From: Eledone cirrhosa
Taxonomy: Eukaryota
NCBI GenBank assembly: GCA_964016885.1
Contig: OZ024756.1
Location: forward strand, 8,432,001 to 8,496,000
Length of the DNA stretch: 64,000 bases
Direction of reading: 5' to 3'
Made by a program: the position numbers and the translations under genes
The notes under the pieces: model-generated
What the model was told of the DNA's origin: nothing
Database searches by the model: none
The model's input: the letters and a program-made list of their open reading frames with translations, nothing else
Part shown: positions 34,101-64,000 of the stretch, piece by piece
Position numbering within the stretch: position 1 is the stretch's first letter
How the letters are laid out: each line of letters opens with the position of its first letter

Positions 34101-37100
34101 CGTGGACTGGGTACTTTTTGATGTGACACCTACATGACGACTTCATAGTGTGGACTAGGTACTTTTTCTTGTGACACCTACATGAGCACTTTATAGTGTG
34201 GGCTGGGTACATTTCGTTGTGACACCTACATGACCACTTTACAGTGTGGACTGAGTGCTTTTTTTTTGTGACACCTATATGACCTCTTTACAGTGTGAAC
34301 TGAGTACTTTTAGTTGTGACACCTGCATGACCACTTTACAATGTGGGCTGGGTAGTTTTTGTTCTGACACCTACATGACCACTGTACAGCATGGTCTGGG
34401 GTTTTTTGTTGGGACACCTACATGACCACTTTACAGTGAGGACTGGGGCTTTTTGTTGTGACACATACATGACCTCTTTACAGTGTGGACTGGGTACTTT
34501 TAGTTGTGACCCCTACATGACCACTTTACAGCGTGGACTGGGGCTTTTCCTTGTGACACCTACATGACCACTTTATAGTGTGGACTGGGTACTTTTTGAT
34601 GTGACACCTACATGACGACTTCATAGTGTGGACTGGGTACTTTTTCTTGTGACACCTACATGACCTGTTTACAGCGTGGACTGGAACTTTTTGTTTTGAC
34701 ACCTACATGACCACTTTGCAGTGTGGACCTGGTACTTATTGTTGTGATACCTACATGACCAATTTACAGTGTGGACTGAGTGATTTTTTTTGTGACACCT
34801 ACATGACCACATTACAGTGTGGACTGGGTGCTTTTTGTTGTGACACCTACATGACCACTTTACAGTGTGCACTGAGTGCTTTTTTGTCGTGACACCTACA
34901 TGACCACTTTACAGTGTCGGCAGAGTGCTTTTTGTTGTGACACCTACATGACCACTTTACAGCATGGTCTGGGATTTTTGTTGGGACACCTACATGACCA
35001 CTTTACAGTGAGGAATGGGGCTTTTTGTTGCGACACCTACATGACCTCTTTACAGTGTGGACTGGGGCTTTTTGTTGTGATACCTACATGACCACTTTAT
35101 AGTGTGAACTGGGTACTTTTTCTTGTGACACCTACATGACGACTTCATAGTGTGGACTGGGTACTTTTTCTTGTGACACCGACATGACCACTTTACAGTG
35201 TGGACTGAGTACTTTTTGTTGTGACATCTACATGACCACTTTACCCATGGACTGGGGCTTTTTGTTGTGACACCTATATGACCACTTTACAGTGTAGACT
35301 GGGTGCTTTTTGTTGTGGCACCTCCATGACCACTTTACAGTGTAGACTGGGTGCTTTTTTTGTAACACCTGCATGACCACTTTACAGTGTGGAGTGGGTG
35401 CTTTTTGTTGTGTCGCCGACACGACCACTTTACAGTGTGGACTCTGGGCTTTTTGTTGTGTCACCTACATGACCACTTTACATGGTGGATTGGAGGCTTT
35501 CTATTGTGGCGCCTACACGACCACTTTACAGTGTGGACTGTGGGCTTTTTGTTGTGTCACCTACATGACCTCTTTACAGTGTGGACTGGGTACTTTTAGT
35601 TTTGACACCTACATGACCACTTTACAGTGTGGACTGGGTACTTTTTGTTCTGACACCTACATGACCACTTTACAGCATGGTCTGGGGCTTTTTGTTGGGA
35701 CACCTACATGACCACTTTACATTGAGGTATGGGGCTTTTTGTTGCGACACCTACATGACCTCTTTACAGTGTGGATTGGGTACTTTTAGTTGTGACACCT
35801 ACATGACCACTTTATAGTGTGGACTGGGTACTTTTTGATGTGACACCTACATGACGACTTCATAGTGTGGACTGGGTACTTTTTTTTGTGCCACCTACAT
35901 GACCACTTTACAGTGTGGACTGAGTACTTTTTCTTGTGACACCTAACTGACCACTTTACAGTGTGGACTGGGTACTTTTTGTTGTGACACCTACATGACC
36001 ACTTTATAGCATGGACTGGGGCTTTTTGTTGTGGCACCTACATGACTACTTTACAGCGTAGACTGGGGCTTTTTGTTGTGACACCTACACGACCACCTTA
36101 CAATGTGGACTGAGTGCTTTTTGTCGTCACACCTACATGACCACTTTACAATGTGGACGGAGTGCTTTTTTTTGTGACACCTACATGACCACTTTACAGC
36201 ATGGACTGAGTGCTTTTTGTTGTGTCACCTACATGACCACTTTACAGCATGTACTTTGTGCTTTTTGTTGCGACACCCACATGACCATTTTACATGGTGG
36301 ACTAGGGCTTTTTGTTGTGATACCTACATGACCACTTTATAGTGTGGACTCGGTACTTTTTCTTGTGATACCTACATGACCACTTTACTTTGTGGACTGT
36401 GTACTTTTTGTTGTGACACCTACATGACCACTTTACAGTGAGGACTGGGGCTTTTTGTTGTGACACATACATGACCTCTTTACAGTGTGGACTGGGTACT
36501 TTTAGTTGTGACCCCTACATGACCACTTTACAGCGTGGACTGGGGCTTTTCCTTGTGACACCTACATGACCACTTTATAGTGTGGACTGGGTAATTTTTG
36601 ATGTGACACCTACATGACGACTTCATAGTGTGGACTGGGTACTTTTTCTTGTGACACCTACATGACCTGTTTACAGCGTGGACTGGAACTTTTTGTTTTG
36701 ACACCTACATGACCACTTTGCAGTGTAGACCTGGTACTTATTGTTGTGATACCTACATGACCAATTTACAGTGTGGACTGAGTGCTTTTTTTTGTGACAC
36801 CTACATGACCACATTACAGTGTGGACTGGGTGCTTTTTGTTGTGACACCTACATGACCACTTTACAGTGTGGACTGAGTGCTTTTTTGTCGTGACACCTA
36901 CATGACCACTTTACAGTGTCGGCAGAGTGCTTTTTGTTGTGACACCTACATGACCACTTTACAGCATGGTCTGGGACTTTTTGTTGGGACACCTACATGA
37001 CCACTTTACAGTGAGGAATGGGGCTTTTTGTTGCGACACCTACATGACCTCTTTACAGTGTGGACTGGGGCTTTTTGTTGTGATACCTACATGACCACTT

Positions 37101-40100
37101 TATAGTGTGGACTGGGTACTTTTTCTTGTGACACCTACATGACGACTTCATAGTGTGGACTGGGTACTTTTTCTTGTGACACCGACATGACCACTTTACA
37201 GTGTGGACTGAGTACTTTTTGTTGCGACATCTACATGACCACTTTACCCATGGACTGGGGCTTTTTGTTGTGACACCTATATGACCACTTTACAGTGTAG
37301 ACTGGGTGCTTTTTGTTGTGGCACCTCCATGACCACTTTACAGTGTAGACTGGGTGCTTTTTTTGTAACACCTGCATGACCACTTTACAGTGTGGAGTGG
37401 GTGCTTTTTGTTGTGTCGCCGACACAACCACTTTACAGTGTGGACTGTGGGCTGTTTGTTGTGTCACCTACACGACCACTTTACAGTGTGGACTCTGGGC
37501 TTTTTGTTGTGTCACCTACATGACCACTTTACATGGTGGATTGGAGGCTTTCTATTGTGGCGCCTACACGACCACTTTATAGTGTGGACTCGGTACTTTT
37601 TCTTGTGATACCTACATGACCACTTTACAGCGTGGACTGTGTACTTTTTGTTGTGACACCTACATGACCACTTTACAGTGAGGACTGGGGCTTTTTGTTG
37701 TGACACATACATGACCTCTTTACAGTGTGGACTGGGTACTTTTAGTTGTGACCCCTACATGACCACTTTACAGCGTGGACTGGGGCTTTTCCTTGTGACA
37801 CCTACATGACCACTTTATAGTGTGGACTGGGTACTTTTTGATGTGACACCTACATGACGACTTCATAGTGTGGACTGGGTACTTTTTCTTGTGACACCTA
37901 CATGACCTGTTTACAGCGTGGACTGGAACTTTTTGTTTTGACACCTACATGACCACTTTGCAGTGTAGACCTGGTACTTATTGTTGTGATACCTACATGA
38001 CCAATTTACAGTGTGGACTGAGTGCTTTTTTTTGTGACACCTACATGACCACATTACAGTGTGGACTGAGTGCTTTTTGTTGTGACACCTACATGACCAC
38101 TTTACAGTGTGGACTGACTGCTTTTTTGTCGTGACACCTACATGACCACTTTACAGTGTCGGCAGAGTGCTTTTTGTTGTGACACCTACATGACCACTTT
38201 ACAGCATGGTCTGGGACTTTTTGTTGGGACACCTACATGACCACTTTACAGTGAGGAATGGGGCTTTTTGTTGCGACACCTACATGACCTCTTTACAGTG
38301 TGGACTGGGGCTTTTTGTTGTGATACCTACATGACCACTTTATAGTGTGGACTGGGTACTTTTTCTTGTGACACCTACATGACGACTTCATAGTGTGGAC
38401 TGGGTACTTTTTCTTGTGACACCGACATGACCACTTTACAGTGTGGACTGAGTACTTTTTGTTGCGACATCTACATGACCACTTTACCCATGGACTGGGG
38501 CTTTTTGTTGTGACACCTATATGACCACTTTACAGTGTAGACTGGGTGCTTTTTGTTGTGGCACCTCCATGACCACTTTACAGTGTAGACTGGGTGCTTT
38601 TTTCTTAACACCTGCATGACCACTTTACAGTGTGGAGTGGGTGCTTTTTGTTGTGTCGCCGACACAACCACTTTACAGTGTGGACTGTGGGCTGTTTGTT
38701 GTGTCACCTACACGACCACTTTACAGTGTGGACTCTGGGCTTTTTGTTGTGTCACCTACATGACCACTTTACATGGTGGATTGGAGGCTTTCTATTGTGG
38801 CGCCTACACGACCACTTTACAGTGTGGACTGTGGGCTTTTTGTTGTGTCACCTACATGACCTCTTTACAGTGTGGACTGGGTACTTTTAGTTTTGACACC
38901 TACATGACCACTTTACAGTGTGGACTGGGTACTTTTTGTTCTGACACCTACATGACCACTTTACAGCATGGTCTGGGGCTTTTTGTTGGGACACCTACAT
39001 GACCACTTTACATTGAGGTATGGGGCTTTTTGTTGCGACACCTACATGACCTCTTTACAGTGTGGATTGGGTACTTTTAGTTGTGACACCTACATGACCA
39101 CTTTATAGTGTGGACTGGGTACTTTTTGATGTGACACCTACATGACGACTTCATAGTGTGGACTGGGTACCTTTTCTTGTGCCACCTACATGACCACTTT
39201 ACAGTGTGGACTGAGTACTTTTTCTTGTGACACCTACCTGACCACTTTACAGTGTGGACTGGGTACTTTTTGTTGTGACACCTACATGACCATTTTACAG
39301 TGTGGACTGGGGCTTTTTGTTGTGATACCTACATGACCACTTTACAGTGTCGGCAGAGTGCTTTTTGTTGTGACACCTACATGACCACTTTACAGCCTGG
39401 ACTGGGGCTTTTTGTTCTGACACCTACATGACCCCTTTACAGCATGGTCTGGGGCTTTTTGTGGGGACACCTACATGACCACTTTACAGTGAGGAATGGG
39501 GCTTTTTGTTGCGACACCTACATGACCTCTTTACAGTGTGGACTGGGTACTTTTAGTTGTGACACCTACATGACCATTTTATAGTGTGGACTGGGTACTT
39601 TTTGATGTGACACCTACATGACCACTTTACAGTGTGGACTGGATACTTTTTGTTGTGACACCTACATGACCACTTTATAGCATGGACTGGGGCTTTTTGT
39701 TGTGGCACCTACATGACCACTTTACAGCGTGGACTGGGGCTTTTTGTTGTGACACCTACACAACCACTTTACAATGTAGACTGAGTGCTTTTTGTCGTGA
39801 CACCTACATGACCACTTTACAGTGTCGACTGAGTGCTTTTTGTTGTGACACCTACATGACCTGTTTACAGCGTGGACTGGGACTTTTTGTTGTGACACCT
39901 ACATGACCACTTTGCAGTGTGGACCTGGTACTTATTGTTGTGATACCTACATATACCAATTTACAGTGTGGACTGAGTGCTTTTTGTCGTGACACCTACA
40001 TGACCACTTTACAGTGTTGACTGGGTACTTTTTGTTCTGACACCTACATGACCACTTTACAGCACGGTCTGGGGCTTTTTGTTGGGACAGCTACATGACC

Positions 40101-43100
40101 ACTTTACAGTGTGGACTGGGGCATTTTGTTGTGACACCTACATGACCTCTTTACAGTGTGGACTGGGTACTTTTAGTTGTGACCCCTACATGACCACTTT
40201 ATAGTGTGGACTGGGTACTTTTTGATGTGACACCTACATGACGAATTCATAGTGTGGACTGGGTACTTTTTCTTGTGACACCTACATGACCACTTTACAG
40301 TGTGGACTGGGTACTTTTTGTTGTGACACCTACATGACCACTTTATAGCATGGACTGGGGCTTTTTGTTGTGGCACCTACATGACCACTTTACAGCGTGG
40401 ACTGGGGCTTTTTGTTGTGACACCTACACGATCACTTTACAATGTGGACTGAGTGCTTTTTTTTGTGACACCTACATGACCACTTTACAGCATGGACTGA
40501 GTGCTTTTTGTGGTGTCACCTACATGACCACTTTACAGCTTGGACTGGGTGCTTTTTTTTGCGACACCTACATGACCATTTTACAGCGTGGACTAGGGTT
40601 TTTGTTGTGATACCTACATGACCACTTTATAGTGTGGACTCGGTACTTTTTCTTGTGACACCTACATGACCACTTTACTTTGTGGACTGTGTACTTTTTG
40701 TTGTGACACCTACATGACCATTTTACAGTGTGGACTGGGGCTTTTTGTTATGATACCTACATGACCATTTTATAGTGTGAACTGGGTACTTTTTCTTGTG
40801 ACACCTTCATGACGACTTCATAGTGTGGACTGGGTACTTTTTCTTGTGACACCTACATGACCACTTTACAGTGTGGACTGAGTACTTTTTGTTGCAACAT
40901 CTACATGACCACTTTACCCCATGGACTGGGGCTTTTTGTTGTGACACCTATATGACCACTTTACAGTGTAGACTGGGTGCTTTTTTTGTGACACCTGCAT
41001 GACCACTTTACAGTGTTGAGTGGGTGCTTTTTGTTGTGTTACCCACATGACCACTCTACAGTGTGGACTGGGTGCTTTTTGTTGTGTCACCTAGATGACC
41101 ACTTTACATGGTGGACTGGAGGCTTTTTATTGTGTCGCCGACACGACCACTTTACAGTGTGGACTGTGGGCTGTTTGTTGTGTCACCTACATGACCACTT
41201 TACAGTGTAGTCTGTGGGCTTTTTGTTGTGTCACCGACACGACCACTTTACATGGTGGACTCGAGGCTTTTTGTTGTGTCGCCTACATGACCACTCTACA
41301 GTGTGGATTTGGTGCTTTTTGTTGTGACACCTACATGACCACTTTACAGCGTGGACTGTGGCTTTTTGTCATGACACCTACATGACCACTTTACAGTGTG
41401 GACTGGGGCTTTTGGTTGTGACACCTACATGACCACTTTACAGTGTAACTGAGTGCTTTTTGTCGTGACACCTACATGACCACTTTACAATGTGGACTGA
41501 GTGCTTTTTTTTGTAACACCTACATGACCACTTTACAGCATGGACTGGGTGCTTTTTGTTGCGACACCTACATGACCATTTTACAGCGTGGACTAGGGTT
41601 TTTGTTGTGACACCTACATGACCACTTTATAGTGTGGACTCGGTACTTTTTCTTGTGACACCTACATGACCACTTTACTTTGTGGACTGTGTACTTTTTC
41701 TTGTGACACCTATATGACCACTTTACAGTGTGGACTGGGGCTTTTTGTTGTGATACCTACATGACCACTTTACCCCATGGACTGGGGCTTTTTGTTGTGA
41801 ACCTATATGACCACTTTACAGTGTAGACTGGGTGCTTTTTGTTGTGGCACCTCCATGACCACTTTACAGTGTAGACTGGGTGCTTTTTTTTGTGACACCT
41901 GCATGACCACTTTACAGTGTGGAGTGGGTGCTTTTTGTTGTGTTACCTACATGACCACTCTACAGTCTGGACTGGGTGCTTTTTGTTGTGTCACCTACAC
42001 GACCACTTTACAGTGTGGACTCTGGGCTTTTTGTTGTGTCACCTACATGACCACTTTACATGGTGGACTGGAGGCTTTTTATTGTGTTGCCTACACGACC
42101 ACTTTACAGTGTGGACTGTGGGCTGTTTGTTGTGTCACCTACATGACCACTCTACAGTATGGAGTGGGTGCTTTTTGTTGTGTCACCTACACGACCACTT
42201 TACAGTGTGGACTTTGGGCTTTTTGTTGTGTCACCTACATGACCACTTTACATGGTGGACTGGAGGCTTTTTATTGTGTTGCCTACACGACCATTTTACA
42301 GTGTGGACTGTGGGCTGTTTGTTGTGTCACCTACACGATGACTTTACAGTGTGGACTCTGGGTTTTTGTTGTGTCACCTACATGACCACTTAACATGGTG
42401 GACTGGAGGCTTTTTGGTGTGTCGCCTACACGACCACTTTACAGTGTGGACTGTGGGCTTCATGTTGTGTCACCCACATGACCACTTTACATGGTGGATT
42501 GGAGGCTTTTTATTGTGTCGCCTACACGACCACTTTACAGTGTACTCTGTGGGCTTTTTGTTGTGTCACCTACATGACCACTTTACATGGTGGACTGGAG
42601 GCTTTTTATTGTGTCGCCGACACGACCACTTTACAGTGTGGACTGTGGGCTGTTTGTTGTGTCACCTACATGACCACTTTACAGTGTAGTCTGTGGGCTT
42701 TTTGTTGTGTCACCTACATGACCACTTTACATGGTGGACTGGAGGCTTTTTGTTGTGTCGCCTACATGACCTCTCTACAGTGTGGATTGGGTGCTTTTTG
42801 TTGTGACACCTACATGACCACTTTACAGCGTGGACTGTGGCTTTTTGTCGTGGCACCTACATGACCACTTTACAGTGTGGACTGGGGCTTTTGGTTGTGA
42901 CACCTACATGACCACTTTACAGTGTAGACTGAGTGCTTTTTGTCGTGACACCTACATGACCACTTTACAGCGTGGACTGGGTGCTTTTTGTTGCAACACC
43001 TACATGACCATTTTACAGCGTGGACTAGGGTTTTTGTTGTGATACCTACATGACCACTTTATAGTGTGGACTCGGTACTTTTTCTTGTGACACCTACATG

Positions 43101-46100
43101 ACCACTTTACTTTGTGGACTGTGTACTTTTTGTTGTGACACCTACATGACCACTTTACAGCATGGACTGAGTGCTTTTTGTTGTGTCACCTACATGACCA
43201 CTTTACAGCATGGACTGGGTGCTTTTTGTTGCGACACGTACATGACCATTTTACAGCGTGGACTAGGGCTTTTTGTTGTGATACCTACATGACCACTTTA
43301 TAGTGTGGACTCGGTACTTTTTCTTGTGACACCTACATGACCACTTTACTTTGTGGACTTATTACTTTTTGTTGTGACACCTACATGACCATTTTACAGT
43401 GTGGACTGGGGCTTTTTGTTATGATACCTACATGACCACTTTATAGTGTGGACTGGGTACTTTTTCTTGTGACACCTTCATGACGACTTCATAGTGTGGA
43501 CTGGGTACTTTTTCTTGTGACACCTACATGACCACTTTACAGTGTGGACTGAGTACTTTTTGTTGCGACATCTACATGACCACTTTACCCCATGGACTGG
43601 GGCTTTTTGTTTTGACACCTATATGACCACTTTACAGTGTAGACTGGGTGCTTTTTGTTGTGGCACCTCCATGATCACTTTACAGTGTAGACTGGGTGCT
43701 TTTTTTGTGTTACCTACATGACCACTCTACAGTGTGGACTGGGTGCTTTTTGTTGTGTCACCTACATGACCACTTTACATGGTGGACTGGAGGCTTTTTA
43801 TTGTGTCGCCGACACGACCACTTTACAGTGTGGACTGTGGGCTGTTTGTTGTGTCACCTACATGACCACTTTACAGTGTAGTCTGTGGGCTTTTTGTCGT
43901 GTCACCTACATGACCACTTTACATGGTGGACTGGAGGCTTTTTGTTGTGTCGCCTACATGACCACTCTACAGTGTGGATTTGGTGCTTTTTGTTGTGACA
44001 CCCACATGACCACTTTACAGCGTGGACTGTGGCTTTTTGTCGTGACACCTACATGACCATTTTACAGCGTGGACTAGGGCTTTTTGTTGTGACACCTACA
44101 TGACCTCTTTACAGTGTGGCCTGGTTACTTTTAGTTGTGACAACTACATGACCACTTTACAGCGTGGACTGGGTGCTTTTTGTTGCGACACCCACATGAC
44201 CATTTTACAGCGTGGACTAGGGCTTTTTGTTGTGACACCTACATGACCTCTTTACAGTGTGGCCTGGTTACTTTTAGTTGTGACAACTACATGACCACTT
44301 TACTGTGTGGACTCGGTACTTTTTGTTGTGACACCTACATGACCATTTTACAGTGTGGACTGGGTACTTTTAGTTGTGACACCTACATGACCACTTTACA
44401 GTGTGGACTGAGTACTTTTTGTTGCGACACCTACATGACCACTTTACCCCATGGACTGGAGCTTTTTGTTGTGACACCTATATGACCACTTTACAGTGTA
44501 GACTGGGTGCTTTTTGTTGTGGCACCTCCATGACCACTTTACAGTGTAGACTGGGTGCTTTTTTTGTGACACCTGCATGACCACTTTACAGTGTGGAGTG
44601 GGTGCTTTTTGTTGTGTTACCTACACGACCACTTTACAGTGTGGACTGGGTGCTTTTTGTTGTGTCACCTACATGACCACTTTACATGGTGGACTGGACG
44701 CTTTTTATTGTGTCGCCGACACGACCACTTTACAGTGTGGACTGTGGGCTGTTTGTTGTGTCACCTACATGACCACTTTACAGTGTAGTCTGTGGGCTTT
44801 TTGTTGTGTCACCTACATGACCACTTTACATGGTGGACTCGAGGCTTTTTGTTGTGTCGCCTACATGACCACTCTACAGTGTGGACTGAGTGCTTTTTGT
44901 TGTGACACCTACATGACCACTTTACAGCGTGGACTGTGGCTTTTTGTCGTGACACCTACATGACCACTTTACAGTGTGGACTGGGGCTTTTGGTTGTGAC
45001 ACCTACATGACCATTTTACAGTGGAGACTGAATGCTTTTTGTTGTGACACCTACATGACCACTTTACAATGTGGACTGAGTGCTTTTTGTTGCGACACCT
45101 ACATGACCACTTTACCCCATGGACTGGAGCTTTTTGTTGTGACACCTATATGACCATTTTACAGTGTAGACTGGGTGCTTTTTGTTGTGGCACCTCCATG
45201 ACCACTTTACAGTGTAGACTGGGTGCTTTTTTTGTGACACCTGCATGACCACTTTACAGTGTGGAGTGGGTGCTTTTTGTTGTGTTACCTACACGACCAC
45301 TTTACAGTGTGGACTGGGTGCTTTTTGTTGTGTCACCTACATGACCACTTTACATGGTGGACTGGACGCTTTTTATTGTGTCGCCGACACGACCACTTTA
45401 CAGTGTGGACTGTGGGCTGTTTGTTGTGTCACCTACATGACCACTTTACAGTGTAGTCTGTGGGCTTTTTGTTGTGTCACCTACATGACCACTTTACATG
45501 GTGGACTCGAGGCTTTTTGTTGTGTCGCCTACATGACCACTCTACAGTGTGGACTGAGTGCTTTTTGTTGTGACACCTACATGACCACTTTACAGCGTGG
45601 ACTGTGGCTTTTTGTCGTGACACCTACATGACCACTTTACAGTGTGGACTGGGGCTTTTGGTTGTGACACCTACATGACCATTTTACAGTGTAGACTGAA
45701 TGCTTTTTGTTGTGACACCTACATGACCACTTTACAATGTGGACTGAGTGCTTTTTTTTGTAACACCCACATGACCACTTTACAGCGTGGACTGGGTGCT
45801 TTTTGTTGCGACACCCACATGACCATTTTACAGCGTGGACTGGGTACTTTTAGTTGTGACAACTACATGACTACTTTACTGTATGGACTCGGTACTTTTT
45901 GTTGTGACACCTACATGACCATTTTACAGCGTGGACTAGGGTTTTTGTTGTGATACCTACATGACTACTTTATAGTGTGGACTCGGTACTTTTTCTTGTG
46001 ACACCTACATGACCACTTTACTTTGTGGACTGTGTACTTTATGTTGTGACATCTACATGACCACGTTACAGTGTGGACTGGGGCTTTTTGTTGTGACACC

Positions 46101-47091
46101 TACATGACCACTTTATAGTGTGGACTGGGTACTTTTTCTTGTGACACCTACATGACCACTTTACAGTGTAGACTGAGTACTTTTTGTTGTGACACCTACA
46201 TGACCACTTTACCCCATGGACTGGGGCTTTTTGTTGTGAACCTATATGACCACTTTACAGTGTAGACTGGGTGCTTTTTGTTGTGGCACCTCCATGACCA
46301 CTTTACAGTGTAGACTGGGTGCTTTTTTTTGTGACACCTTCATGACCACTTTACAGTGTGGAGTGGGTGCTTTTTGTTGTGTTACCTACATGACCACTCT
46401 ACAGTATGGACTGGGTGCTTTTTGTTGTGTCACCTACACGACCACTTTACAGTGTGGACTCTGGGCTTTTTGTTGTGTCACCTACATGACCACTTTACAT
46501 GGTGGACTGGAGGCTTTTTATTGTGTTGCCTACACGACCACTTTACAGTGTGGACTGTGGGCTGTTTGTTGTGTCACCTACATGACCACTCTACAGTATG
46601 GAGTGGGTGCTTTTTGTTGTGTCACCTACACGACCACTTTACAGTGTGGACTGTGGGCTGTTTGTTGTGTCACCTACATGACCACTTTACATGGTGGATT
46701 GGAGGCTTTTTATTGTGTCGCCTACACGACCACTTTACAGTGTGGACTGTGGGCTTTTTGTTGTGTCACCTACATGACCACTTTACAGTGTACTCTGTGG
46801 GCTTTTTGTTGTGTCACCTACATGACCACTTTACATGGTGGACTGGAGGCTTTTTGTTGTGTCGCCTACATGACCACTCTACAGTGTGGATTGTGTGCTT
46901 TTTGTTGTGACACCTACATGACCACTTTACAGCGTGGACTGTGGCTTTTTGTCGTGACACCTACATGACCACTTTACAGTGTAGTCTGTGGGATTTTTGT
47001 TGTGTCACCTACATGACCACTTTACATGGTGGACTGGAGGCTTTTTGTTGTGTCGCCTACACGACCACTTTACAGTGTAAACTGGGTGCTT
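31186..47091. repeat. 47/48-bp tandem satellite, consensus GTGACACCTACATGACCACTTTACAGTGTGGACTGGGTRCTTTTTGTT, about 330 copies
   Basis: Direct reading of monomers. 47-bp variants have GGGGCTTTTT in place of GGGTGCTTTTT. The 16-aa periodicity of the ORF-track peptides (MTTLQCGLGAFCCDTY) reflects the 48-bp unit. Confidence 0.98.
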
Positions 47092-47675: not shown

Positions 47676-48095
47676 TTCGTTTCTGAATTTGTTTAGCAAT
47701 GTGTGACGAAAGAACTTTGACAATATATAAACAACTATCTGGTTGTGGAACCAACCAACCAACCAGAAATTTATAAATTCCTAAATTTATAAATTTATTA
47801 TAATAAATTGAAGTGAAAGCAACTGGTGCGTGTGTTTCTTATTGGCAACATGACCCTCCCAAATTATTAAAATATATATATATATATATTTCGTTTCTGA
47901 ATTTGTTTAGCAAGATTATTTATCTGAAATCGTGTGTTGAAACCGATATTGTTATACTTTGGGAGGGTCATGTTGCCAATAAGAAACACACGCACCAGTT
48001 GCTTTCACTTCAATTTATTATATATTTATAAATTTACAAATTTATAAATTTCTGGTTGGTTGGTTGGTTCCACAACCAGATAGTTGTTTATATAT

Positions 48096-48140
48096 AGTCA
48101 TAGTTCTTTCGTCACACACTCTGTGACCTCTTCAGTGACT
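48096..48140 (-). ncRNA. Minimal type I hammerhead ribozyme motif (family A, minus copy)
   Basis: Exact reverse complement of 48389-48433. Confidence 0.7.
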
Positions 48141-48388
48141 GGGGATTCCTTTCTTTGTTTCTGTGCCTCTTCTTTGTTCTGTCCTACGCCATTTTGTTTC
48201 TGTGTGTTTTCACATAGAACAAACAACCAACCAGTAACATGTAAATAAACAAATAGATAAATGAACATAAACACACACAGACACCCGGATGTGGCGCATG
48301 CGCAGACTGAGCACACAACACACACACAGAAACAAAATGGCGTAGGACAGAACAAAGGAGAGGCACAGAAACAAAGAAAGGAATCCCC

Positions 48389-48433
48389 AGTCACTGAAGA
48401 GGTCACAGAGTGTGTGACGAAAGAACTATGACT
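48389..48433 (+). ncRNA. Minimal type I hammerhead ribozyme motif (family A)
   Basis: AGTCA-CTGAAGA-G-GTCACA-gagtg-TGTGAC-GAAA-GAAC-TA-TGACT. Helix I AGTCA/TGACT, core CUGAnGA and GAAA, 6-bp helix II, predicted cut after A48428. Confidence 0.7.
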
Positions 48434-48575
48434 ATATATAAACAACTATCTGGTTGTGGAACCAACCAACCAACCAGAAATTTATAAATTTGTAAATGTA
48501 TAAATATATAATAAATTGAAGTGAAAGCAACTGGTGCGTGTGTTTCTTATTGGCAACATGACCCTCCCAAATTAT

Positions 48576-49332: not shown

Positions 49333-49393
<61 letters not shown>
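49282..49393. repeat. Compound microsatellite (CTG)n(CTT)n(TTA)n(TAG)n
   Basis: Direct reading. Confidence 0.95.
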
Positions 49394-55245: not shown

Positions 55246-55255
55246 TATATATATA

Positions 55256-56800
55256 ATTCAAGAAAAAAGAGTGACATGGTTCGCTATACAATAAAGGCTT
55301 TATTCAGGTTGCTGACAATTGTTTTTTCGATCTGGTAGGTCTAGAGTTCGCTACTCGCCTGATTTTGAGTCAATCGATCTCCAATACTTTGTTTATAACC
55401 AGTCGTTTTCATCGGACCACGCGAAAGTGAAGAATATACACAAGGCATGGCTTTTATATAGGAGTGGTATTAAACCAGAACACTAATATCAATAATAAAA
55501 TAAAATAACTAGATAGTGAATAGCTAAAATAATAACATCAATATAAGTAAGAAATAGAGTATAATGATGAATCTAGCATGTTAAACGAACGGATATTATA
55601 CAGATGTATGAAATTGACATGTGAAAACTGCTATAGGGTACGTTAGATATAGTGTTAAGGTGGCGGAGATATAACAGTGACAACTAAAATGTACTTGGGG
55701 TCAAGATTTATGAGATGTGTGCTTTGCTGTAGGTGTGCTGGCAATACACCGGGGATTTCCTTATTGTCTGACAGATAAAGATTTTCGTAGTATTAATTTA
55801 GTGATAATGATAGTTTTTATGTGGTGTTAAGTGGAGTTGTAGATTCTTTATTTAAGTGGCCTATACTAAAAGTAGGGATTGTTAGTTCGAGTCATGGGGT
55901 TTTAGTTTTCACAACATCAATAACCAATCGTGTATAAATAAAACAATAATAATAACAATAATAGTGGAGACAAAACAGGTAATAAAATAGTAAAATATGC
56001 ATGGTAGATATAGAGAACATGATGAATAATACTAGGGATACATTGAGATGTTCATAATAATAATAAGAGGAAAGTGAGATTTCAAGGAGTGTAGGAGTAA
56101 TAAGATAATGTACTTAGAATTAAGTTCATCTGTTAGAGATCATGAGTGCTAATGTGAGATATAATTGTTTGGTCCTAAGGAGTGAACAACAGCAAAGATG
56201 AGATTGATTTATGGGCTGATAAGATAGTTGTAGACATATCCCAGTGGTATAGAATTAGGGAGGCTAGAAGGAGTTTATAGAAGGTTATGTTCTGTAGTGG
56301 GCTGTATGAGAATGCGGATGTCAAATGTTAAATGCTAAGTGATGTTGGTTCGAATTACGGTGGTTTAAATCTCGCGAATTTACTAGCAATCCTATGTCTG
56401 CAGAAAATTGACCTTTCTATTTTGCTGTTGAGTAGCATTTTATCGTTCCTTAAGATATGCAGCAATTCAAGGTTGCAGAGTCCGCAATGGGACATACCAC
56501 TGCTATAGTACTTAGCGGCCGCCAATTTCGACCAGCTAATATTGTAATCAAGGTTTTTATCCTTAAGTTGCCAGATTTTATTGGCGAGGGTTGTAGAATT
56601 TACCAGTGCACGGTTTTTCATTGAATGTCTGTGCACATACCATCTTTTTTTAAAAACACCCACGGTGGATCCAATGTAGTGCCAAGTGGAGTTGCCCGAG
56701 TTTACAGTGCACATGTACACTAGGCTCGAATCAAGGCACCTATTCGCTAATGGACATTTGCCCGGTAGGTGGCAATTGCAGTTTGAGGTATTATTCTGTT
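55256..56800 (-). mobile_element. Penelope-like element 1, 5'-truncated: endonuclease domain, 3' region and pseudo-LTR ending at (TA)n
   Basis: GIY-YIG domain at 56355-56780, about 1.1 kb AT-rich 3' region, TATATAAAAG at 55451-55460 (minus), hammerhead-like halves at 55409-55415 and 55314-55328. Confidence 0.75.
56355..56780 (-). pseudogene. GIY-YIG endonuclease domain of a PLE (open frame, RT missing)
   Basis: CNCHLPGKCPLANRCL-LVYMCTV-HYIGST-FKKRWYVH-LANKIWQLK-ISW-CGLCNLE-LLNSKIE-CRH. Confidence 0.85.
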
Positions 56801-57042
56801 ATATAAACTGTTATATGTGGGTTGCGATTCATGCCTATTAAAGTTTTGCTGTGGTGCGTATACAGACGTACAGTAGTATGTATATATATATATACATACA
56901 TGCACACATAATATATATATGTACGTATGGATTTACCGAACATTTATTATAATGTTCGGTTTGTTTGTAAACAAACAACCCGAATTAAGCCGTACAGTGT
57001 TTAGCAACCATCGTTGCCCTTTTGTTCAACACTGACAAAGGA

Positions 57043-57085
57043 ACGATGTACTAGTTTCAAGCTTATTAGCTATCGTCAGCACCGT
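57043..57085 (-). ncRNA. Minimal type I hammerhead motif (family B, minus copy)
   Basis: Reverse complement of 57559-57601. Confidence 0.7.
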
Positions 57086-57558
57086 AAACCTTCCTGCCAG
57101 ATGATTGAACGTCTGAAAGTATATACTTTCCTTATGCATATTAACGGCTGAGCAGCCTAATTTGCATATCTAGTGAGTTAGTCGGCCGGGCGCACCGAAA
57201 ACGAAATGGAAAAAATGAAAAGAAATTTCATTTCTCACTCTTAGTACGGCTGTTACGTAAATATAAGTATGTATACGTACATACATATATATAGAGAGAC
57301 GTACAGTAGTATGTATATATATACATACATGCACACATATATATATGTACGTATGGATTTACCGAACATTTATTATAATGCTCGCTTTGTTTGTAAACAA
57401 ACAACCCGAATTAAGCCGTACAGTCATTTTTTCCATTTATCGTTTTCGGTGCGCCCGACCGACTAACTCACTCGATATGCAAATTAGGCTGCTCTGCCGT
57501 TAATATGCATAAGGAAAGTATATACTTTCAGACGTTCAATCATCTGGCAGGAAGGTAT

Positions 57559-57601
57559 ACGGTGCTGACGATAGCTAATAAGCTTGAAACTAGTACATCG
57601 T
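57559..57601 (+). ncRNA. Minimal type I hammerhead motif (family B) with palindromic CTAG helix III loop
   Basis: ACGGTG-CTGACGA-T-AGCT-aata-AGCT-T-GAAA-CTAG-TA-CATCGT. 6-bp helix I (one G-U), full core, palindromic tetranucleotide as known for PLE minimal hammerheads. Confidence 0.72.
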
Positions 57602-58005
57602 TCCTTTGTCAGTGTTGAACAAAAGGGCAATGATGGTTGCTAAACACTGTACGGCTTAATTCGGGTTGTTTGTTTACAAACAAACCGAGCATTATAATAA
57701 ATGTTCGTTAAATCTATACGTACATATATATATGTGTGCATGTATGTATATATATACATACTACTGTACGTCTGTATACATATATGTATGTACGTATACA
57801 TACTAATATATATAAATATATATATATAGTAAGGTGTATTATTGGTTGTGCAAAACGGTCCAATAAATTTTTGTTAGCAATATTAAGTTCTCCACGCTTT
57901 TGTATATCTCCAATTCCATTCAAGGGAACAGCTAGATGATGTAAAACGGAGTATTAGTATCAAAATGAAAATCCGAAGGCAAGGTAAAATTTCCAATCAT
58001 TTTAA

Positions 58006-58079
58006 TCACGACACATGTTTCAATAAGAGATAGATCGATCGTGAAGCCATGATCAATTATCACTGATCTCATCAGGTGA
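58006..58079 (-). ncRNA. Long-helix-II hammerhead-like motif (inverted copy of 62185-62258)
   Basis: Minus strand reads TCAC-CTGATGA-47 nt-GAAA-CATGTG-TC-GTGA. Confidence 0.55.
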
Positions 58080-58614
58080 AAATGAATTGATGAACGGACT
58101 CATATACGTGAGGCGAGTCACCCCAACCCCTGGGAACTTACCTATAGAGCAGACAAGAACTGAGACCCGACCCCAAAGGTACCGTGGTTCCTCTGGAACT
58201 ACCCAGGTCGATAACAGAAAATGTAATTGCAGGAACACCGCCACTTGCCCCATGGCTTGGAAATGTCTCACCAAAAACATAGTCTACGACTGTAAGGTCT
58301 CCACTCTTGATAGAACCTTCAGGTATGTTGGGGCAACTGCCACTGAATTTAAGGATTGATGGTATAATCACCCCCATACCTTTAATATATTAGATAAAAA
58401 AAAATAGGACGGCGATTTCTGGATTAGTCTGGAAGCTTAAACAACAGAATATAGAGCACTTCTTATCCTGGTCCATAATTTGCTCAGCCCAGCCTTATAA
58501 CGGCAGCACTGGCGTCTGTAATTTCTGTATAGCTGAAACCTTTAATATTATTAGAGGCGGCCCCCTATTAATTAATAGGTGAGCGGATTTTTTAGCAACT
58601 GCCAACATAGAACC

Positions 58615-58975
58615 TATAGCAAAATACTGGTGTGTATGAATGTAATAAGGAGACGTGGTTTGTGTGTATAATATTTAATCAACAATTTGTAGTTATATAG
58701 AACAGTATAGTTGACATGTCAATGAATAGATGAAAGAATGAAGCAAAGTTATTAGTTACCGTTTGGTTGCCAGGCGAACGCGCCTGGGCGAATACGCCTG
58801 GCCGAAAAGGCAAATGAGAGAGGGAGCTTAAAGTTATTCCCTTTATAGGGTTGGAACGGAAGTAACAGAAAGGGTTCTGCCACCAACGGGAAGTAACTCC
58901 AACTACTTCCTGTCTAGAGAGCGTTAATCTATTGGTGATGTGAGTGTCACAACAAGGGAGGCAACTCCTGCTACA
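58615..58975 (-). repeat. 3' LTR (361 bp)
   Basis: Direct repeat of 60315-60678. Minus strand reads TGTAGCA...TGCTATA and is preceded by purine-rich GGCGGGAGATAA. Confidence 0.92.
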
Positions 58976-60300
58976 TTATCTCCCGCCAGATTTTTAAAAT
59001 ATAAAAATCGAATGAAATATGTATGTAGTAAGTTGGCGAGAATGTTGTAACAGGCATGAAAATTACGAAAAAAAAAATGTTTGCAATAATAGGAAAACAG
59101 CAAAATGTATGCATGCAAAAATCAATGATAGATATCAAGGTAGCCAACCGCTCTTGGCCAGAGAACGACTGGACATCTATCTATCCATCACCCAAAGATA
59201 CAATGTAATCAAAGAGAAGAGAAGAGCTCAAAGTTCACATGTTCAAAATACAGTTCACAGGTGTGCAATCACATGACAGCAGGAAAGAAAGTGTGTTCCA
59301 GTGAATGAATGCAGGTGGTTTCTGTTCTGTGGTATATCGTGAAATTTCCAACCTCCGAATGGATTTTCTCACAGGAAGAGTGCTGCAAAAATAAATTCTC
59401 TGGCTTGTTCTGCTGGTTTTGGTTGTTGATGAAGCTGTGTTGCTGTTGATGTTGTTGTCTCGCGGAGTGAGCGTATTCGATGTTTAAATTCACAGTAAAA
59501 AATTTTTCCAGAAAAAATGAGTTGAGCAAAGTCTAGAAATAACAGCCGAAGTTGATGGTCGATGTTGAGAATGCGTTGACCTGGAAGGGTCAAGAGGCCA
59601 GCGACCAAAGAAATAAGCATTCCGAATAAATGCGCAGTTTTCAACGGCAAATTTACGTGGTAAATTTTTAAACCGGCAAATAGGAGAATATAGCTTAAGG
59701 CTGGAGAATCCTTGGCGAGAAACGTTATCTCTGGCGTGTGGTTATCTCCGTGAGTCGAGAATTGTGCTGCCTACACGTGCCAAAACAAGGTTAAGTTGAA
59801 AAAAAAATATTTCTAATGCGCGAGAAAATGATAGTGCAACAGGTCGTTGGCAGCCATTTTGAAAAAATGTGTGTGTGAACGTGACAATATGATGAAAAAG
59901 AAAGAAAGGCTTCACTTAGTATAACAAATATGGCGAGTTCAATTTTTTTTGTGAACGATGAAAAAAACTTGAACGATGAAGAAAACGATGAAAAAAAGCA
60001 ATAGTTGAGATTCATCGAAAATAAATGTTCATGTTGAAATGTGTAAAAAAAAAAAAAATTTCTTTTTTTTTTTGTTTTTAAAGTGTTCGTTGTAAGAAGA
60101 AACGAAAAACACATATATATATACAGTGAAATGCGACAGTTAGTTGATGCGTGAGAGAAAAAGAATCTGTCTGAACGAGAATTTCACATGTGCGTGTGTT
60201 CGTTTCTGTGTCTGCGTATGTTCATAGTTTGTCAATAAAATTTGCTGCGTATTCGTAATGTTACTCACACAACACCAGATTCTGCCATTTTTTTCTTTTT

Positions 60301-60312
60301 TCGGGGTCACCA
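60301..60312 (-). promoter_or_regulatory. Primer-binding site complementary to tRNA-Trp 3' end
   Basis: Minus strand TGGTGACCCCGA lies 2 nt after the 5' LTR and matches the first 12 nt of the classic tRNA-Trp PBS TGGTGACCCCGACGTGAT. Confidence 0.85.
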
Positions 60313-60314
60313 CT

Positions 60315-60678
60315 TATAGCAAAATACTGGTGTGTATGAATATAACAAGGAGACGTGGTTTGTGTGTATAATATTTAATCAACAATTTGTGGTTATATAG
60401 AACAGTATAGTTGACATGTCAATGAATAGATGAAAGAATGAAGCAAAGTTATTAGTTACCGTTTGGTTGCCAGGCGAACGCACCTGGGCGAAGACGCCTG
60501 GCCGAAAAGGCAAATGAGAGAGATGGAGCTTAAAGTTATTCCCTTTATAGGGTTTGGAACGGAAGTGACAGAAAGGGTTCTGCCACCAACGGGAAGTAAC
60601 TCCAACTACTTCCTGTCTAGATAGCGTTAATCTATTGGTGGTGTGAGTGTCACAACACGGGAGGCCACTCCTGTTACA
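60315..60678 (-). repeat. 5' LTR (364 bp)
   Basis: Minus strand reads TGTAACA...TGCTATA. About 11 substitutions and 2 small indels versus the other LTR by hand count. Confidence 0.92.
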
Positions 60679-62184
60679 AACCTCTAAAACCTTCCGCAGG
60701 ATTTTTGGAAAGTAACCTACCATTAACTCCTCCCTCTCTACTTTAGCCATAAAGTTCTCTCAATAAACAGACAATCACACACTCAGGTAGTTAGACGGCT
60801 AAGATCGTTTGCTCACTTACAAACGATACTCGACCTGTTTCCACAGAGTTCTCACAGCTGAGTGCACTTTAGAATACCTAGTTAGTAAATAGTTAGAATG
60901 ATTACACACTCAGAATACCTAGTTAGTAAATGATTACACACTCAGGCAAAACCGATTACGCGCATTTGCCTTTACTTTAAGATACCCTAACCATTGAGTT
61001 CTCTCGGTTGGGATATAGCTAGACGTATTGCACACTCAGTTAAGACCGATTGCGCTCTCTTTACATAACTCTACACACAGTACCCGTTTTCTTTAGACAT
61101 TGAGTTCCCACAGTTACGACTGGTTACGTTCCTACCGATTGAACACTACACTAGGTTTTGATCATCTAACCATGGAGTGCTCACAGTTACGGATTGAACA
61201 GTAATACTTACACACCATTAATGGGCCTACACACATCCTCTAGGTTTTGCTATCCTTTGTTATTTTACTTTACTTTTTGTGTTGGATAACACATCTCCAC
61301 CACTCAAACACCTATCTTAAAAGCCCAAGGGCCCATATGACGGGAAATCGCACTTACTGACACCTTAACCCAAATACCCAACCCTACACGGAGCCCCTTG
61401 CTGGCCTACATAGCGGTTGCTTGCACGCACAGATTTGGGGACTCGGATTCTCAATGGGACAGCGGTACATACTGAGTTCGATATGAGCTGATTGCTTGCT
61501 CTTCACATAGATGTGTATATACCTAGACATACACTTTTTTGGACGATACGGATGTGTATATACCATAACATACACTATTTGGAGATACGGATGTTACAAT
61601 TCAATCTATACACGTATAGCAGAACACTGAACTGAACTTACTTGCTTACTTGCTTGTGTGTTTATGTGTGTGTATGGGGCTGTGGTTGACCCAATATTTC
61701 CAATTTGCATCGTCAAATTGTGATTTAACCAATGTAGCATTTGTTGTTTTGTAAACTAACTCTCGGTAAATGCTATGTTGGTATATTCTTATATTTATTG
61801 TTTTTTCTTTCACATGTCTTCGGTGTGTGTGTACCCACTCACACTAATTGTGACCGTCTATAGTTCTACAGATTTGATACTGTGTTGATGTGTGTATATA
61901 TATATATTTTTTTTCTTTGACCTCGAGTCGGTGTGTGTGGGTGTTGAGTGTGTGTGTACCCACTCACATAACCTGTGACCGATTGTATTTCTACAGATTT
62001 GATTGATGTCCAGCGTCTTTTGCAGCTATTGGGATATAAAAACTTATTGGTTTTTATGACCTTAACTGAAGTTGATAGCAGTCGCCGCATTTTGACTGCT
62101 TGATCTCCATATGAGGGAATAAACTCTGTGAGTGAACATTGCTAATTTTCTCCCTCATATCAAGAATATGAAGACAATTCATTT

Positions 62185-62258
62185 TCACCTGATGAGATTA
62201 GTGATAATTGATCATGACTTCACGATCGATCTAAGTCTTATTGAAACATGTGTCGTGA
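62185..62258 (+). ncRNA. Type I hammerhead-like motif with 47-nt helix II region
   Basis: TCAC-CTGATGA(62189-62195)-47 nt-GAAA(62243-62246)-CATGTG-TC-GTGA. Helix I TCAC/GTGA, GUC cleavage triplet. Confidence 0.6.
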
Positions 62259-62310
62259 TTAAAATGATTGGAAAATTTACCTTGCCTTCGGATTTTCATT
62301 CATATATATA

Positions 62311-63300
62311 TAGAAAAGATGAATATAAAATGAAAGTGCTTTTTTTTAAAAAGGAATTTATTAGGTATTGACATATGTTTCTGTAACAGACGGAATACCT
62401 ATGTATCGCTGCTTGCGTAATCATATAATTGTTTCTACTTTTGGCACAAGGCCAGCAAATACCCAGTACATTACTGGTACTTTATTTTATCGACCCCGTA
62501 AGGATGAAAGGCAAAGTTAACCTCGGCGGGATTTGAACTCAGACCGCAAAGGGACGTAACTATGTTGGAAAGCATGGCGTCCGACTCTCTACCGATACTG
62601 CCAATCCACCAATGTTAGCAAGTATTCGATAGCAAATGTATAATCAGTTGTCACTTCTTCAGAGATATTGGATAAATTGGAAAAAATCAGAAAAATTGAA
62701 ATATTTATATTAGTTGTAATAAAGAAGGAAGAGGGGGGATAGTATATGACAGATGGCAATTCAATTTACTGGTAAACAAGTATATAAAGGGTTTCTTTTG
62801 AGAATACAATGAGTATATGGTTTATTTTATCTAAATAAGAATTTTTGGGAGTGCCTATTTTAATCTATACTTGACCAATTGAACAATGGACAGGGCTGGT
62901 CGTTTGGTGTAGTAGTATTAATTATAAAGTGTCAATTAAGGAAGAGGGAGATTTCGACTGCTACTGAATAACAACAATGCTGGTAGCCTGCTGGTATATG
63001 CATTAGGGAATTGAATTAAGAAATCTCATTTTATCTATAGCAGTTTATATTAAATGATAAAGAATAGAAGAGTTGATAGAATTAAGACTAATAGAGAATG
63101 TTAATATGTATTTTGACAATCAAACGGAGATGGAGACAGACGTTCAATCCTGGTAGTATTTGTAATATGAAAATGTAGATTTTAAGCGATGGTTACAGTA
63201 TAACGATCGCTCTATTCTCTTATTTAATAAAATGTTTTTGGATTTCATAATACAAAATAATTCCATATTACATAATTTACAAAATTCCTGTCCGTGGGAA
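62311..63300 (-). mobile_element. Penelope-like element 3, 5'-truncated within the endonuclease; SINE inserted in its pseudo-LTR
   Basis: 63144-63300 encodes CKLCNMELFCI...LLNKRIERSLYCNHR, matching the C-terminal half of the other two endonucleases. Hammerhead halves at 62656-62662 and 62370-62381; ends at (TA)n ~62302-62311. Confidence 0.72.
62425..62610 (-). mobile_element. tRNA-derived SINE, near full length
   Basis: Minus strand GGTGGATTGGCAGTATCGGTAG...GAGTTCAAATCCCGCC...GGCCTTGTGCCAAAAGTAGAAACAATTAT; same family as 50175-50374. Confidence 0.88.
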
Positions 63301-63378
63301 ATGGAGGGGCAGCTGCTATTATCTCCCATTTTAGGTTAAATTGTTGGTTATTTTCGCGCAGCTGCCAAGCCTTGTCTG

Positions 63379-63495
63379 CGAGTGTTGTTACATAACGCTG
63401 GTTTACATGTTTTATCGAGTAACGATATAGACATCGCCTTTATAGACATCGTTACTCGATAAAACATGTAAACCAGCGTTATGTAACAACACTCG
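63379..63495. repeat. Perfect 48-bp inverted repeat with 21-bp spacer
   Basis: 63379-63426 is the exact reverse complement of 63448-63495. Confidence 0.95.
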
Positions 63496-63610
63496 AGCAT
63501 TATAATAAATGTTCGGTAAATCCATACGTACATATATATATGTGTGCATGTATGTATATATATACATACTACTGTACGTCTGTATACATATATGTATGTA
63601 CGTATACATA

Positions 63611-63612
<2 letters not shown>
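63494..63612 (+). mobile_element. Tail copy of pseudo-LTR family B
   Basis: Matches ~57686-57803 (GAGCATTATAATAAATGTTCG...GTATACATACT) and runs into (TA)n. Confidence 0.85.

Positions 63613-63661
<49 letters not shown>
63613..63661. repeat. (TA)n microsatellite
   Basis: Direct reading. Confidence 0.95.
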
Positions 63662-63668
<7 letters not shown>

Positions 63669-63671
63669 CAT

Positions 63672-64000
63672 ATATCATCATCATCGTCATTTTACATCCG
63701 CTTTTCCCTGCTTGCAAGGGTTGGACGGGTCCTTTTCAGCACCGCATCTCTCCACTTGTCACGGTCCTTCGGCATCTCCTCCGTGAGTTTCAGCAATCTG
63801 AGGTCTGCTCTCACCACCTCCCGCCATGTTTTACGTGGTCTACCTCTACTGCGTCTTCCTTCTACTGGGATTTCTTGGCACTTCTTTACCCAGCGGTCAA
63901 CCTCCATGCGCACCACATGTCCATACCATCTCAGCCTTCTCTCCTGCACACCACAACTTATCCCTCTTATACCCAGTTTCTTTCTCAACTCGTCTATGCT
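63672..64000 (-). mobile_element. RTE-clade LINE 3' end with (GAT)n tail, continues off the right edge
   Basis: ORF 63692-63988 has RRLRWYGHVVRM...EGRRSRGRPRKTW...D...DRDKWR, the typical RTE C-terminus; GATGATGAT tail on the minus strand. Confidence 0.9.

Follow-up and report, generated by a model that had tools for sequence, protein, structure and literature searches.

Does the Penelope-like element (PLE) that ends around 62185–62263 carry a hammerhead ribozyme there, and is the long arm that splits its core a new kind of device or a variant of a known one? The question arises in a window of 64,000 nucleotides (the whole stretch of DNA analysed here), whose first 47 kb are satellite DNA, followed by an L1-like fragment and three broken elements, called elements 1, 2 and 3 below; the end at 62185 belongs to element 2. 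The original prediction saw in it a type I hammerhead of a PLE pseudo-LTR, with palindromic helix III and unusually long helix II, and this reading is supported by the core, the position and the match to a covariance model (R1). We consider it probable that this end is a type I hammerhead in the 3' pseudo-LTR of a broken Hydra-clade PLE with a predicted 47-nt helix II, that its source RNA was likely cut as a dimer after the GUC at 62252–62254, and that the present copy has probably decayed. Novelty is limited to helix II length: this is a modest variant and no new RNA class.

The claimed succession of core, 47 nt, GAAA, CATGTG, TC, GTGA and ATTAAA is present exactly, all on the plus strand. 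The 5' strand of helix I (62180–62188, from sequence and a constrained fold) consists of TCAC at 62185–62188, which forms 4 bp with GTGA at 62255–62258, and of CATTT, which in the constrained fold pairs with AAATG at 62262–62266 across a 3-nt bulge and extends the helix by 5 bp. Then come the core CUGAUGA (C3–A9; 62189–62195, from sequence and model match), the 47-nt helix II segment (62196–62242, from sequence and the constrained fold) and, read from sequence at 62243–62254, GAAA (62243–62246), the self-complementary helix III insert CAUGUG (62247–62252) and the UC of the GUC triplet (62253–62254); the cut is predicted directly after C62254. The remainder (62255–62300) holds the 3' strand of helix I, ATTAAA (62258–62263) and a tail that ends at 62300 beside a (TA)n run. 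Several marks of a type I hammerhead are present: a CUGANGA core with GAAA and a UH triplet; a helix I of 4 bp plus 5 bp beyond the bulge that stays in register with both the core and the cut site; and a helix III with A15.1–U16.1 whose palindrome suits dimer pairing. Helix I had been described as a weak 4-bp helix; with its extension it is longer. The base of helix II is weak as described, with G-U, A-U and U-A pairs at the foot of the 47-nt segment. An open frame running through the hammerhead has, by eye, no likeness to Hydra ORF starts and was set aside.

Short words of this kind might coincide by chance in AT-rich repeat DNA. The free gap of 47 nt loosens the pattern, and the 62185 copy folds no better than its shuffles (z –0.6). 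Against chance stands the pattern search, where the layout matches twice in the 64-kb window and in none of 100 shuffles, and again in none of 300 shuffles of 55250–64000; the only CYGANGA on the plus strand from 57566 to the window end is the one of element 2 at 62189. The second match (58010–58075, minus strand), absent from the original prediction, lies inside an inverted copy of the end of element 2. Further evidence comes from R1, built from 34 short hammerheads of Hydra relatives and from no window sequence; in these relatives all three helices covary, with 94% of cells paired and double changes in 11 of 13 pairs. R1 ranks the two copies of element 2 first (25.4 bits, E 5.5e–5 in 17 kb, next match 13.5 bits), skipping the 47 nt, and with default filters both are its only two matches in 64 kb. 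As the motif also sits at the place expected for it, the PLE end, a chance origin is refuted for element 2 by the shuffles and the R1 match, and we hold it to be hardly credible.

The same scan bears on the suspicion that short-helix models could miss the long form, which is not borne out: R1 is a short-helix model and finds element 2 under default filters. It does not match elements 1 and 3. No Rfam hammerhead family was recovered from the window among 55 matches at E up to 10, all of them low-complexity miRNA matches; Rfam also misses short hammerheads at 57565 and 57079, and therefore its miss says little about helix II.

These two short hammerheads are canonical (CUGACGA, 14-nt segment, CUAG palindrome). 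They lie at 57556–57604 (plus strand) and 57040–57088 (minus strand), in both arms of an inverted repeat at 56858–57779 that has no long ORF and part of which recurs at 63494–63636 without a hammerhead; their R1 matches are weak, and the repeat is likely a non-autonomous PLE end or a retrozyme-like repeat. A further short hammerhead-like motif (AGTCA/TGACT helix I, CUGAAGA, GAAA) is found at 48091–48145 (minus) and 48384–48438 (plus), in both arms of a 262-nt inverted repeat, with 13.5 bits in R1. The satellite DNA forms two arrays, 173–31100 and 31200–47000; in the first, which is strongly GC-skewed, a unit of 32 nt is repeated about 955 times, and some satellite units contain CTGATGA by chance.

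What kind of elements carry these ends? All three had been called endonuclease-bearing, and GIY-YIG fragments do lie upstream of the ends, on the same strand, in each. The fragment of element 1 (56355–56798, minus) is open over 147 aa, shares about 40% identity with Hydra-type RT-EN proteins and has 3716 relatives at E up to 0.001; that of element 2 (58090–58620, plus) is broken by one stop and frameshifts; that of element 3 (63147–63439, minus) is also broken. A CxCX5C linker, CxxC and CxH define the Hydra clade among PLEs (PMC8557442). Elements 1 and 2 have all three marks and no CCHH; element 3, whose endonuclease is truncated ahead of the linker, retains CxxC and CxH. Full-length homologues (P0001, P0003, P0081 and P0140) are RT-endonuclease proteins with RW and DKT motifs. 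A Pfam search gave no recognition of the endonuclease fragments, a protein search restricted to near-length relatives gave no match, and no relatives were found among viral contigs.

All three copies are 5'-truncated, and the copy ends near 55255, 57828, 62300 and 62314 all lie at (TA)n; insertion at (TA)n, together with an inverted truncated copy at the 5' side, is a trait of the Hydra clade. Element 1 ends near 55255 at (TA)n within an L1-like RT fragment, and one (TA)n run, 62300–62314, is where elements 2 and 3 meet tail to tail. The inverted copy of the 3' end of element 2 (57829–58089, minus strand, from inverted match and fold) directly adjoins the endonuclease of that element, a layout already described for PLEs (PMC8557442). 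Over 126 nt it matches 62175–62300 at 96% identity, and it runs about 135 nt beyond, to a (TA)n run. Its hammerhead, from core to GTC at 58075–58010, is better kept than that of the 62185 copy. The 3' region of element 2 spans 3.6 kb, compared with 79–556 nt between endonuclease and hammerhead in the surveyed relatives; within it lies a direct duplication of 367 nt (96%; 58612–58975 and 60312–60678), whose copies flank about 1.3 kb of other sequence.

The layout was originally proposed for all three elements. It is literal in element 2, the only one with core and helix I in register, so that there is one intact example and not three. Element 1 ends in a decayed hammerhead (55299–55420, minus strand) with CCGATGA, a rod-forming segment of 80 nt, G followed by six A, CAATTG, TC and AATAAA, the span from core to TC being 55314–55415. 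The predicted CCGATGA, spacing of about 80 nt and AATAAA 9 nt after TC are thus there, and the junction GAAA-CA-NN-TG-TC is absent in its literal form because six A follow the G, three of them extra. The hexamers differ and remain self-complementary, as claimed, CATGTG through two G-U pairs. Extra A's occur at both core junctions of element 1, GAAA is not joined directly to helix III, helix I, read by eye, needs a shift of one base to reach 4 of 5 pairs, and R1 gives no match. An 84-nt stretch that includes GAAA folds as a rod (z –2.5), and its base pair uses G12.

Element 3 has a hammerhead-like end at 62357–62662 (minus strand) with CTGAAGA, a rod-forming segment of 90 nt when freed of an insertion, GAAA, CATATG, TC and AATAAA. 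The insertion is a high-copy short repeat at 62427–62610 (minus strand), located by read joint and depth, which we take to be a SINE; further copies lie near 49385 and 50203. As the window stands, 274 nt separate CTGAAGA from GAAACATATGTC (62370–62662, minus), and 184 of them are SINE. A joint of 62426 to 62611 that skips the 184 nt is supported by 612 and 571 reads and by 3 and 4 contigs, and therefore the family of element 3 exists without the SINE. Its later insertion, as predicted, is thus borne out, and the SINE-free segment of 90 nt comes near the 88 first given. This segment folds as a rod (z –2.7). Beside the core, element 3 has no helix I in register, only 1 pair, and no variant or indel that would restore it is found among the 40 of 112 read differences listed. 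An 8-bp helix of TAGGTATT with AATACCTA, from inside the segment, competes by covering the cut site and the 3' product (z –3.0 for that part).

A permuted topology was considered for element 3 and rejected. Non-circularly permuted hammerheads keep the stem I strand directly before CUGANGA in their block C (PMC10085705), and here the partner of the 3' product lies 12 nt before GAAA and not before CUGAAGA. As a separate observation, the 3' ends of Naiad_Obim, Naiad_Ovul and Naiad_Esco in the PMC8557442 supplement appear by eye to have hammerhead blocks arranged as S-G-C, the permuted order of PMC10085705. Two of these cephalopod Naiads are marked 'half core' there and one is unmarked; by eye, they have a 5-bp stem III and a 6-bp stem I, both with sequences that differ between octopus and squid, and a stem II unpaired with the strand after CUGAUGA. 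If this is true, some Naiads carry permuted hammerheads.

How unusual are segments of 47–90 nt? An alignment of eight homologues retrieved the best 80 of 400 metagenome loci. Searched with a descriptor that tolerated as much as 160 nt between the cores, 47 of these 80 gave a downstream type I hammerhead. The tally comprises 36 distinct hammerheads from 44 loci, with L044, L047 and L054 (segments of 22–23 nt) outside it. Their segments measure 11–28 nt and their helix III inserts 6 nt (once), 7 nt (24 times) or 8 nt (11 times). At least 170 nt of downstream sequence was available for 17 of the 33 descriptor-negative loci, and rechecking these with the model gave a short hammerhead in 12, four of them only upstream of the gene, the longest segment being 30 nt. 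The long pattern has no match in the 80 loci; a 57-nt match in L032 was dropped, since it overlaps the true 12-nt hammerhead of that locus. Helix II length therefore stands out, 47–90 nt in the window elements versus 11–30 nt among the best 80 of 400 related loci, a comparison in which close kin lie outside the sample because the query was cnidarian-like. The 6-nt palindrome, by comparison, is no new trait: precedents are UAGCUA in D. willistoni (PMC4209133), AGCGCT in PLE-X1_cBra (PMC8557442) and CTCGAG in locus L011.

Such a contrast could mean that the long arm is a selected, lineage-wide feature with a job: it might, for instance, dock on the bulged helix I and so speed cleavage, or bind the RT-endonuclease protein of the element. 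All three Hydra-type elements of the window combine long segments (47, 80 and 90 nt) with 6-nt palindromes, and all three segments can fold as rods closing near the core. By eye, elements 1 and 3 have in common an internal loop of similar form next to a UCG/CGA stem, with different flanking stems. Their ends, moreover, align when the cores are included (p 0.002), so that the original description of the surrounding sequence as not alignable was too strong, and their UTRs do not (p 0.63). Against a functional arm speaks the small number of cases, three with two of them damaged; the alignment of the segments alone is borderline (p 0.05, mononucleotide shuffles), the joint fold of this segment alignment is almost empty (–1.1), the shared 5-mer was chosen post hoc, and the relatives were found with a cnidarian-like query that leaves close kin outside the sample. 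We regard a selected arm as doubtful. Its extended version is also unlikely, namely that a Hydra-clade lineage in this host, likely an octopus to judge by its short repeats, grew helix II systematically to 47–90 nt, with a shared internal loop and 6-nt palindromes, as a functional module for helix I docking or protein binding that fixed-length descriptors overlooked. The long arm is most likely a tolerated outgrowth of loop II and no new catalytic device; it is most simply seen as the far end of a length series of 11–15, 17–30, 47 and 80–90 nt.

Reads help to separate the family from the decayed copy. The read data listed consist of three contig sets of one sample (0.38–0.41 of words) and three RAD runs taken by species label; four of these six runs, which may come from the same or a related species and in which RAD reads favour copies near cut sites, were mapped to 61980–62760. 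The hammerhead of element 2 belongs to a multi-copy family. Within the 47-nt segment the 62185 copy differs from the read majority at five positions (62199C in 625/647 reads, 62209C in 643/716, 62217G in 623/729, 62234T in 722/749 and 62235C in 720/749; run X4, majority 85–97%), and at four of these five the inverted copy agrees with the majority. The majority letters restore three helix II pairs and convert one G-U to G-C, with a single mismatch left. Most listed reads beyond 62300 continue like the inverted copy, and therefore the family end lies farther out than the end of the 62185 copy at 62300. Among the 40 of 112 read differences listed, we found no compensatory double change in helix II (the read table is unphased).

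Predicted folds follow the same order. The 47-nt segment alone has a z of –0.4 as found at 62185, –1.6 in its inverted counterpart and –2.3 once the majority letters are put in; closed at the core, the segment forms 14 pairs (–5.5 kcal/mol), 18 pairs (–10.6 kcal/mol) and 18 pairs (–12.7 kcal/mol), respectively. Helices I and II are both present in the free fold of the majority sequence, and the best fold of the 62185 copy is an inactive form that buries the cut site. The pair of helix II next to the core is G-U, found in none of the 36 surveyed relatives (G-C in 17, U-U in 16, A-U in 3) and listed at this place for Penelope-17_HM (PMC8557442). Helix III as a self duplex has 8 bp with two G-U pairs (–6.0 kcal/mol), and a shifted inactive register is equal at –6.0. 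The dimer hammerhead is predicted at –46.4 kcal/mol against –43.6 for two monomers. It is less stable than the best free dimer by 6.8 kcal/mol (by 10.8 in the 62185 copy); among 34 relatives this gap ranges from 0 to 17.8, with a median of 5.4.

These results also bear on whether the hammerheads are simply relics, dead or dying in these families, with long segments that arose as neutral foldback insertions or duplications. The family of element 3 lacks helix I in register in reads and has the competing helix, and element 1 has its extra A's. In element 2 two helices seem to have undergone changes of the CpG-decay type: the family majority still has an A-C mismatch in helix II and, in helix III, the G-U pairs. 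In addition, hammerhead cleavage was dispensable for insertion in vitro in a Poseidon element (PMC11167929). However, core, helix I and triplet of element 2 are intact in both copies, none of the 40 of 112 read differences listed falls on a core position, and its dimer fold competes as well as those of typical relatives do. We rate this explanation as improbable on the whole.

An even less likely proposal couples the hammerhead to a downstream polyadenylation signal, either for the cut-off 3' piece or for the next transcript unit. It draws on A(A/T)TAAA after the triplet in all three window elements and, within 20 nt, in 6 of 36 distinct relatives, compared with 3.5% of background 20-nt windows. 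But the published consensus has an AU-rich flank at this place, facing a U-rich 5' flank (PMC4209133), 30 of the 36 relatives lack the hexamer, and in element 2 it overlaps helix I and its extension. The 'poly(A)-like signal' of the original prediction is thus better described as a hexamer in an AU-rich flank that pairs within extended helix I; the copies end at (TA)n, and none has an A tail. We think the coupling very improbable.

Returning to the reading of a type I hammerhead with a tolerated long arm, a working scheme would be the following. Neighbouring tandem PLE copies would be transcribed together; two tandem motifs could then pair their ACAUGUGU strands into a shared 8-bp helix III, giving a nested dimer in the predicted fold, and each core in the dimer would cut after its GUC and trim the tandem precursor. 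By analogy with PLE hammerheads, whose cleavage is weak and seen only in dimers or with extended helix III (PMC4209133), trimming of tandem transcripts would be slow. Taken as an intact example, element 2 extends about twofold the helix II sizes on record for PLE hammerheads of animals. The core descriptors in PMC8557442 use short fixed spacers of 7–17 nt, and descriptors of this type undercount such motifs. If the long arm were functional, it would offer a handle on the role of PLE hammerheads, because cleavage is slow and, in one element, dispensable in vitro; if neutral, it is a minor footnote.

We found no description of a long-helix-II form in animal PLEs in the literature covered; Luense et al. 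2017 (PLE hammerhead variants), Repbase and Dfam may hold cases, and most subscription papers lie outside this scope. Five 11-nt junction words had no match in the PMC8557442 supplement, where line breaks could hide one. With the Hydra-clade PLE hammerheads described by Craig et al. 2021 (PMC8557442), the end of element 2 shares its CUGAUGA and GAAAC cores, a helix III that is nearly palindromic, a place near the 3' end and (TA)n targets. Nearest in look is Penelope-17_HM, with a TTCATTT/AAATGA helix I and the same G-U at the helix II base. The differences are the spacing of the cores, 12–26 nt in the 26 Hydra rows by a count by eye and 47 nt in element 2, and the helix III insert, 7–8 nt in these rows and 6 nt in element 2; Hydra-1_oBim, the one octopus family listed there, has another hammerhead and another endonuclease.

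PLE hammerheads in general have a short helix I, a helix II of 7–8 bp, a palindromic helix III and an AU-rich 3' flank (PMC4209133). Element 2 resembles the metazoan PLE minimal hammerheads and small-palindrome variants of Cervera and de la Pena 2014 (PMC4209133) in its short helix I, palindromic helix III and U-rich/AU-rich flanks; further parallels are an enlarged helix II, second copies in inverted orientation where the 5' end is truncated, and the dimer model. Helix II there reaches up to about 7–8 bp with short loops, whereas about 18 pairs are predicted in element 2. A comparable distance of about 50 nt between the cores is seen in PLE-X1_sMoe and PLE-X1_sTam from spike mosses, marked as deviating in PMC8557442. 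Unlike element 2, these are endonuclease-less plant elements of another clade, with a short stem, a loop of 29–35 nt and no 6-nt palindrome. A core split by a long peripheral insertion is also known from the mammalian discontinuous Clec2 hammerheads (PMC6155905 and PMC2950038), which differ from element 2 in being type III, in having the insertion in helix I and in being domesticated in an mRNA 3' UTR.
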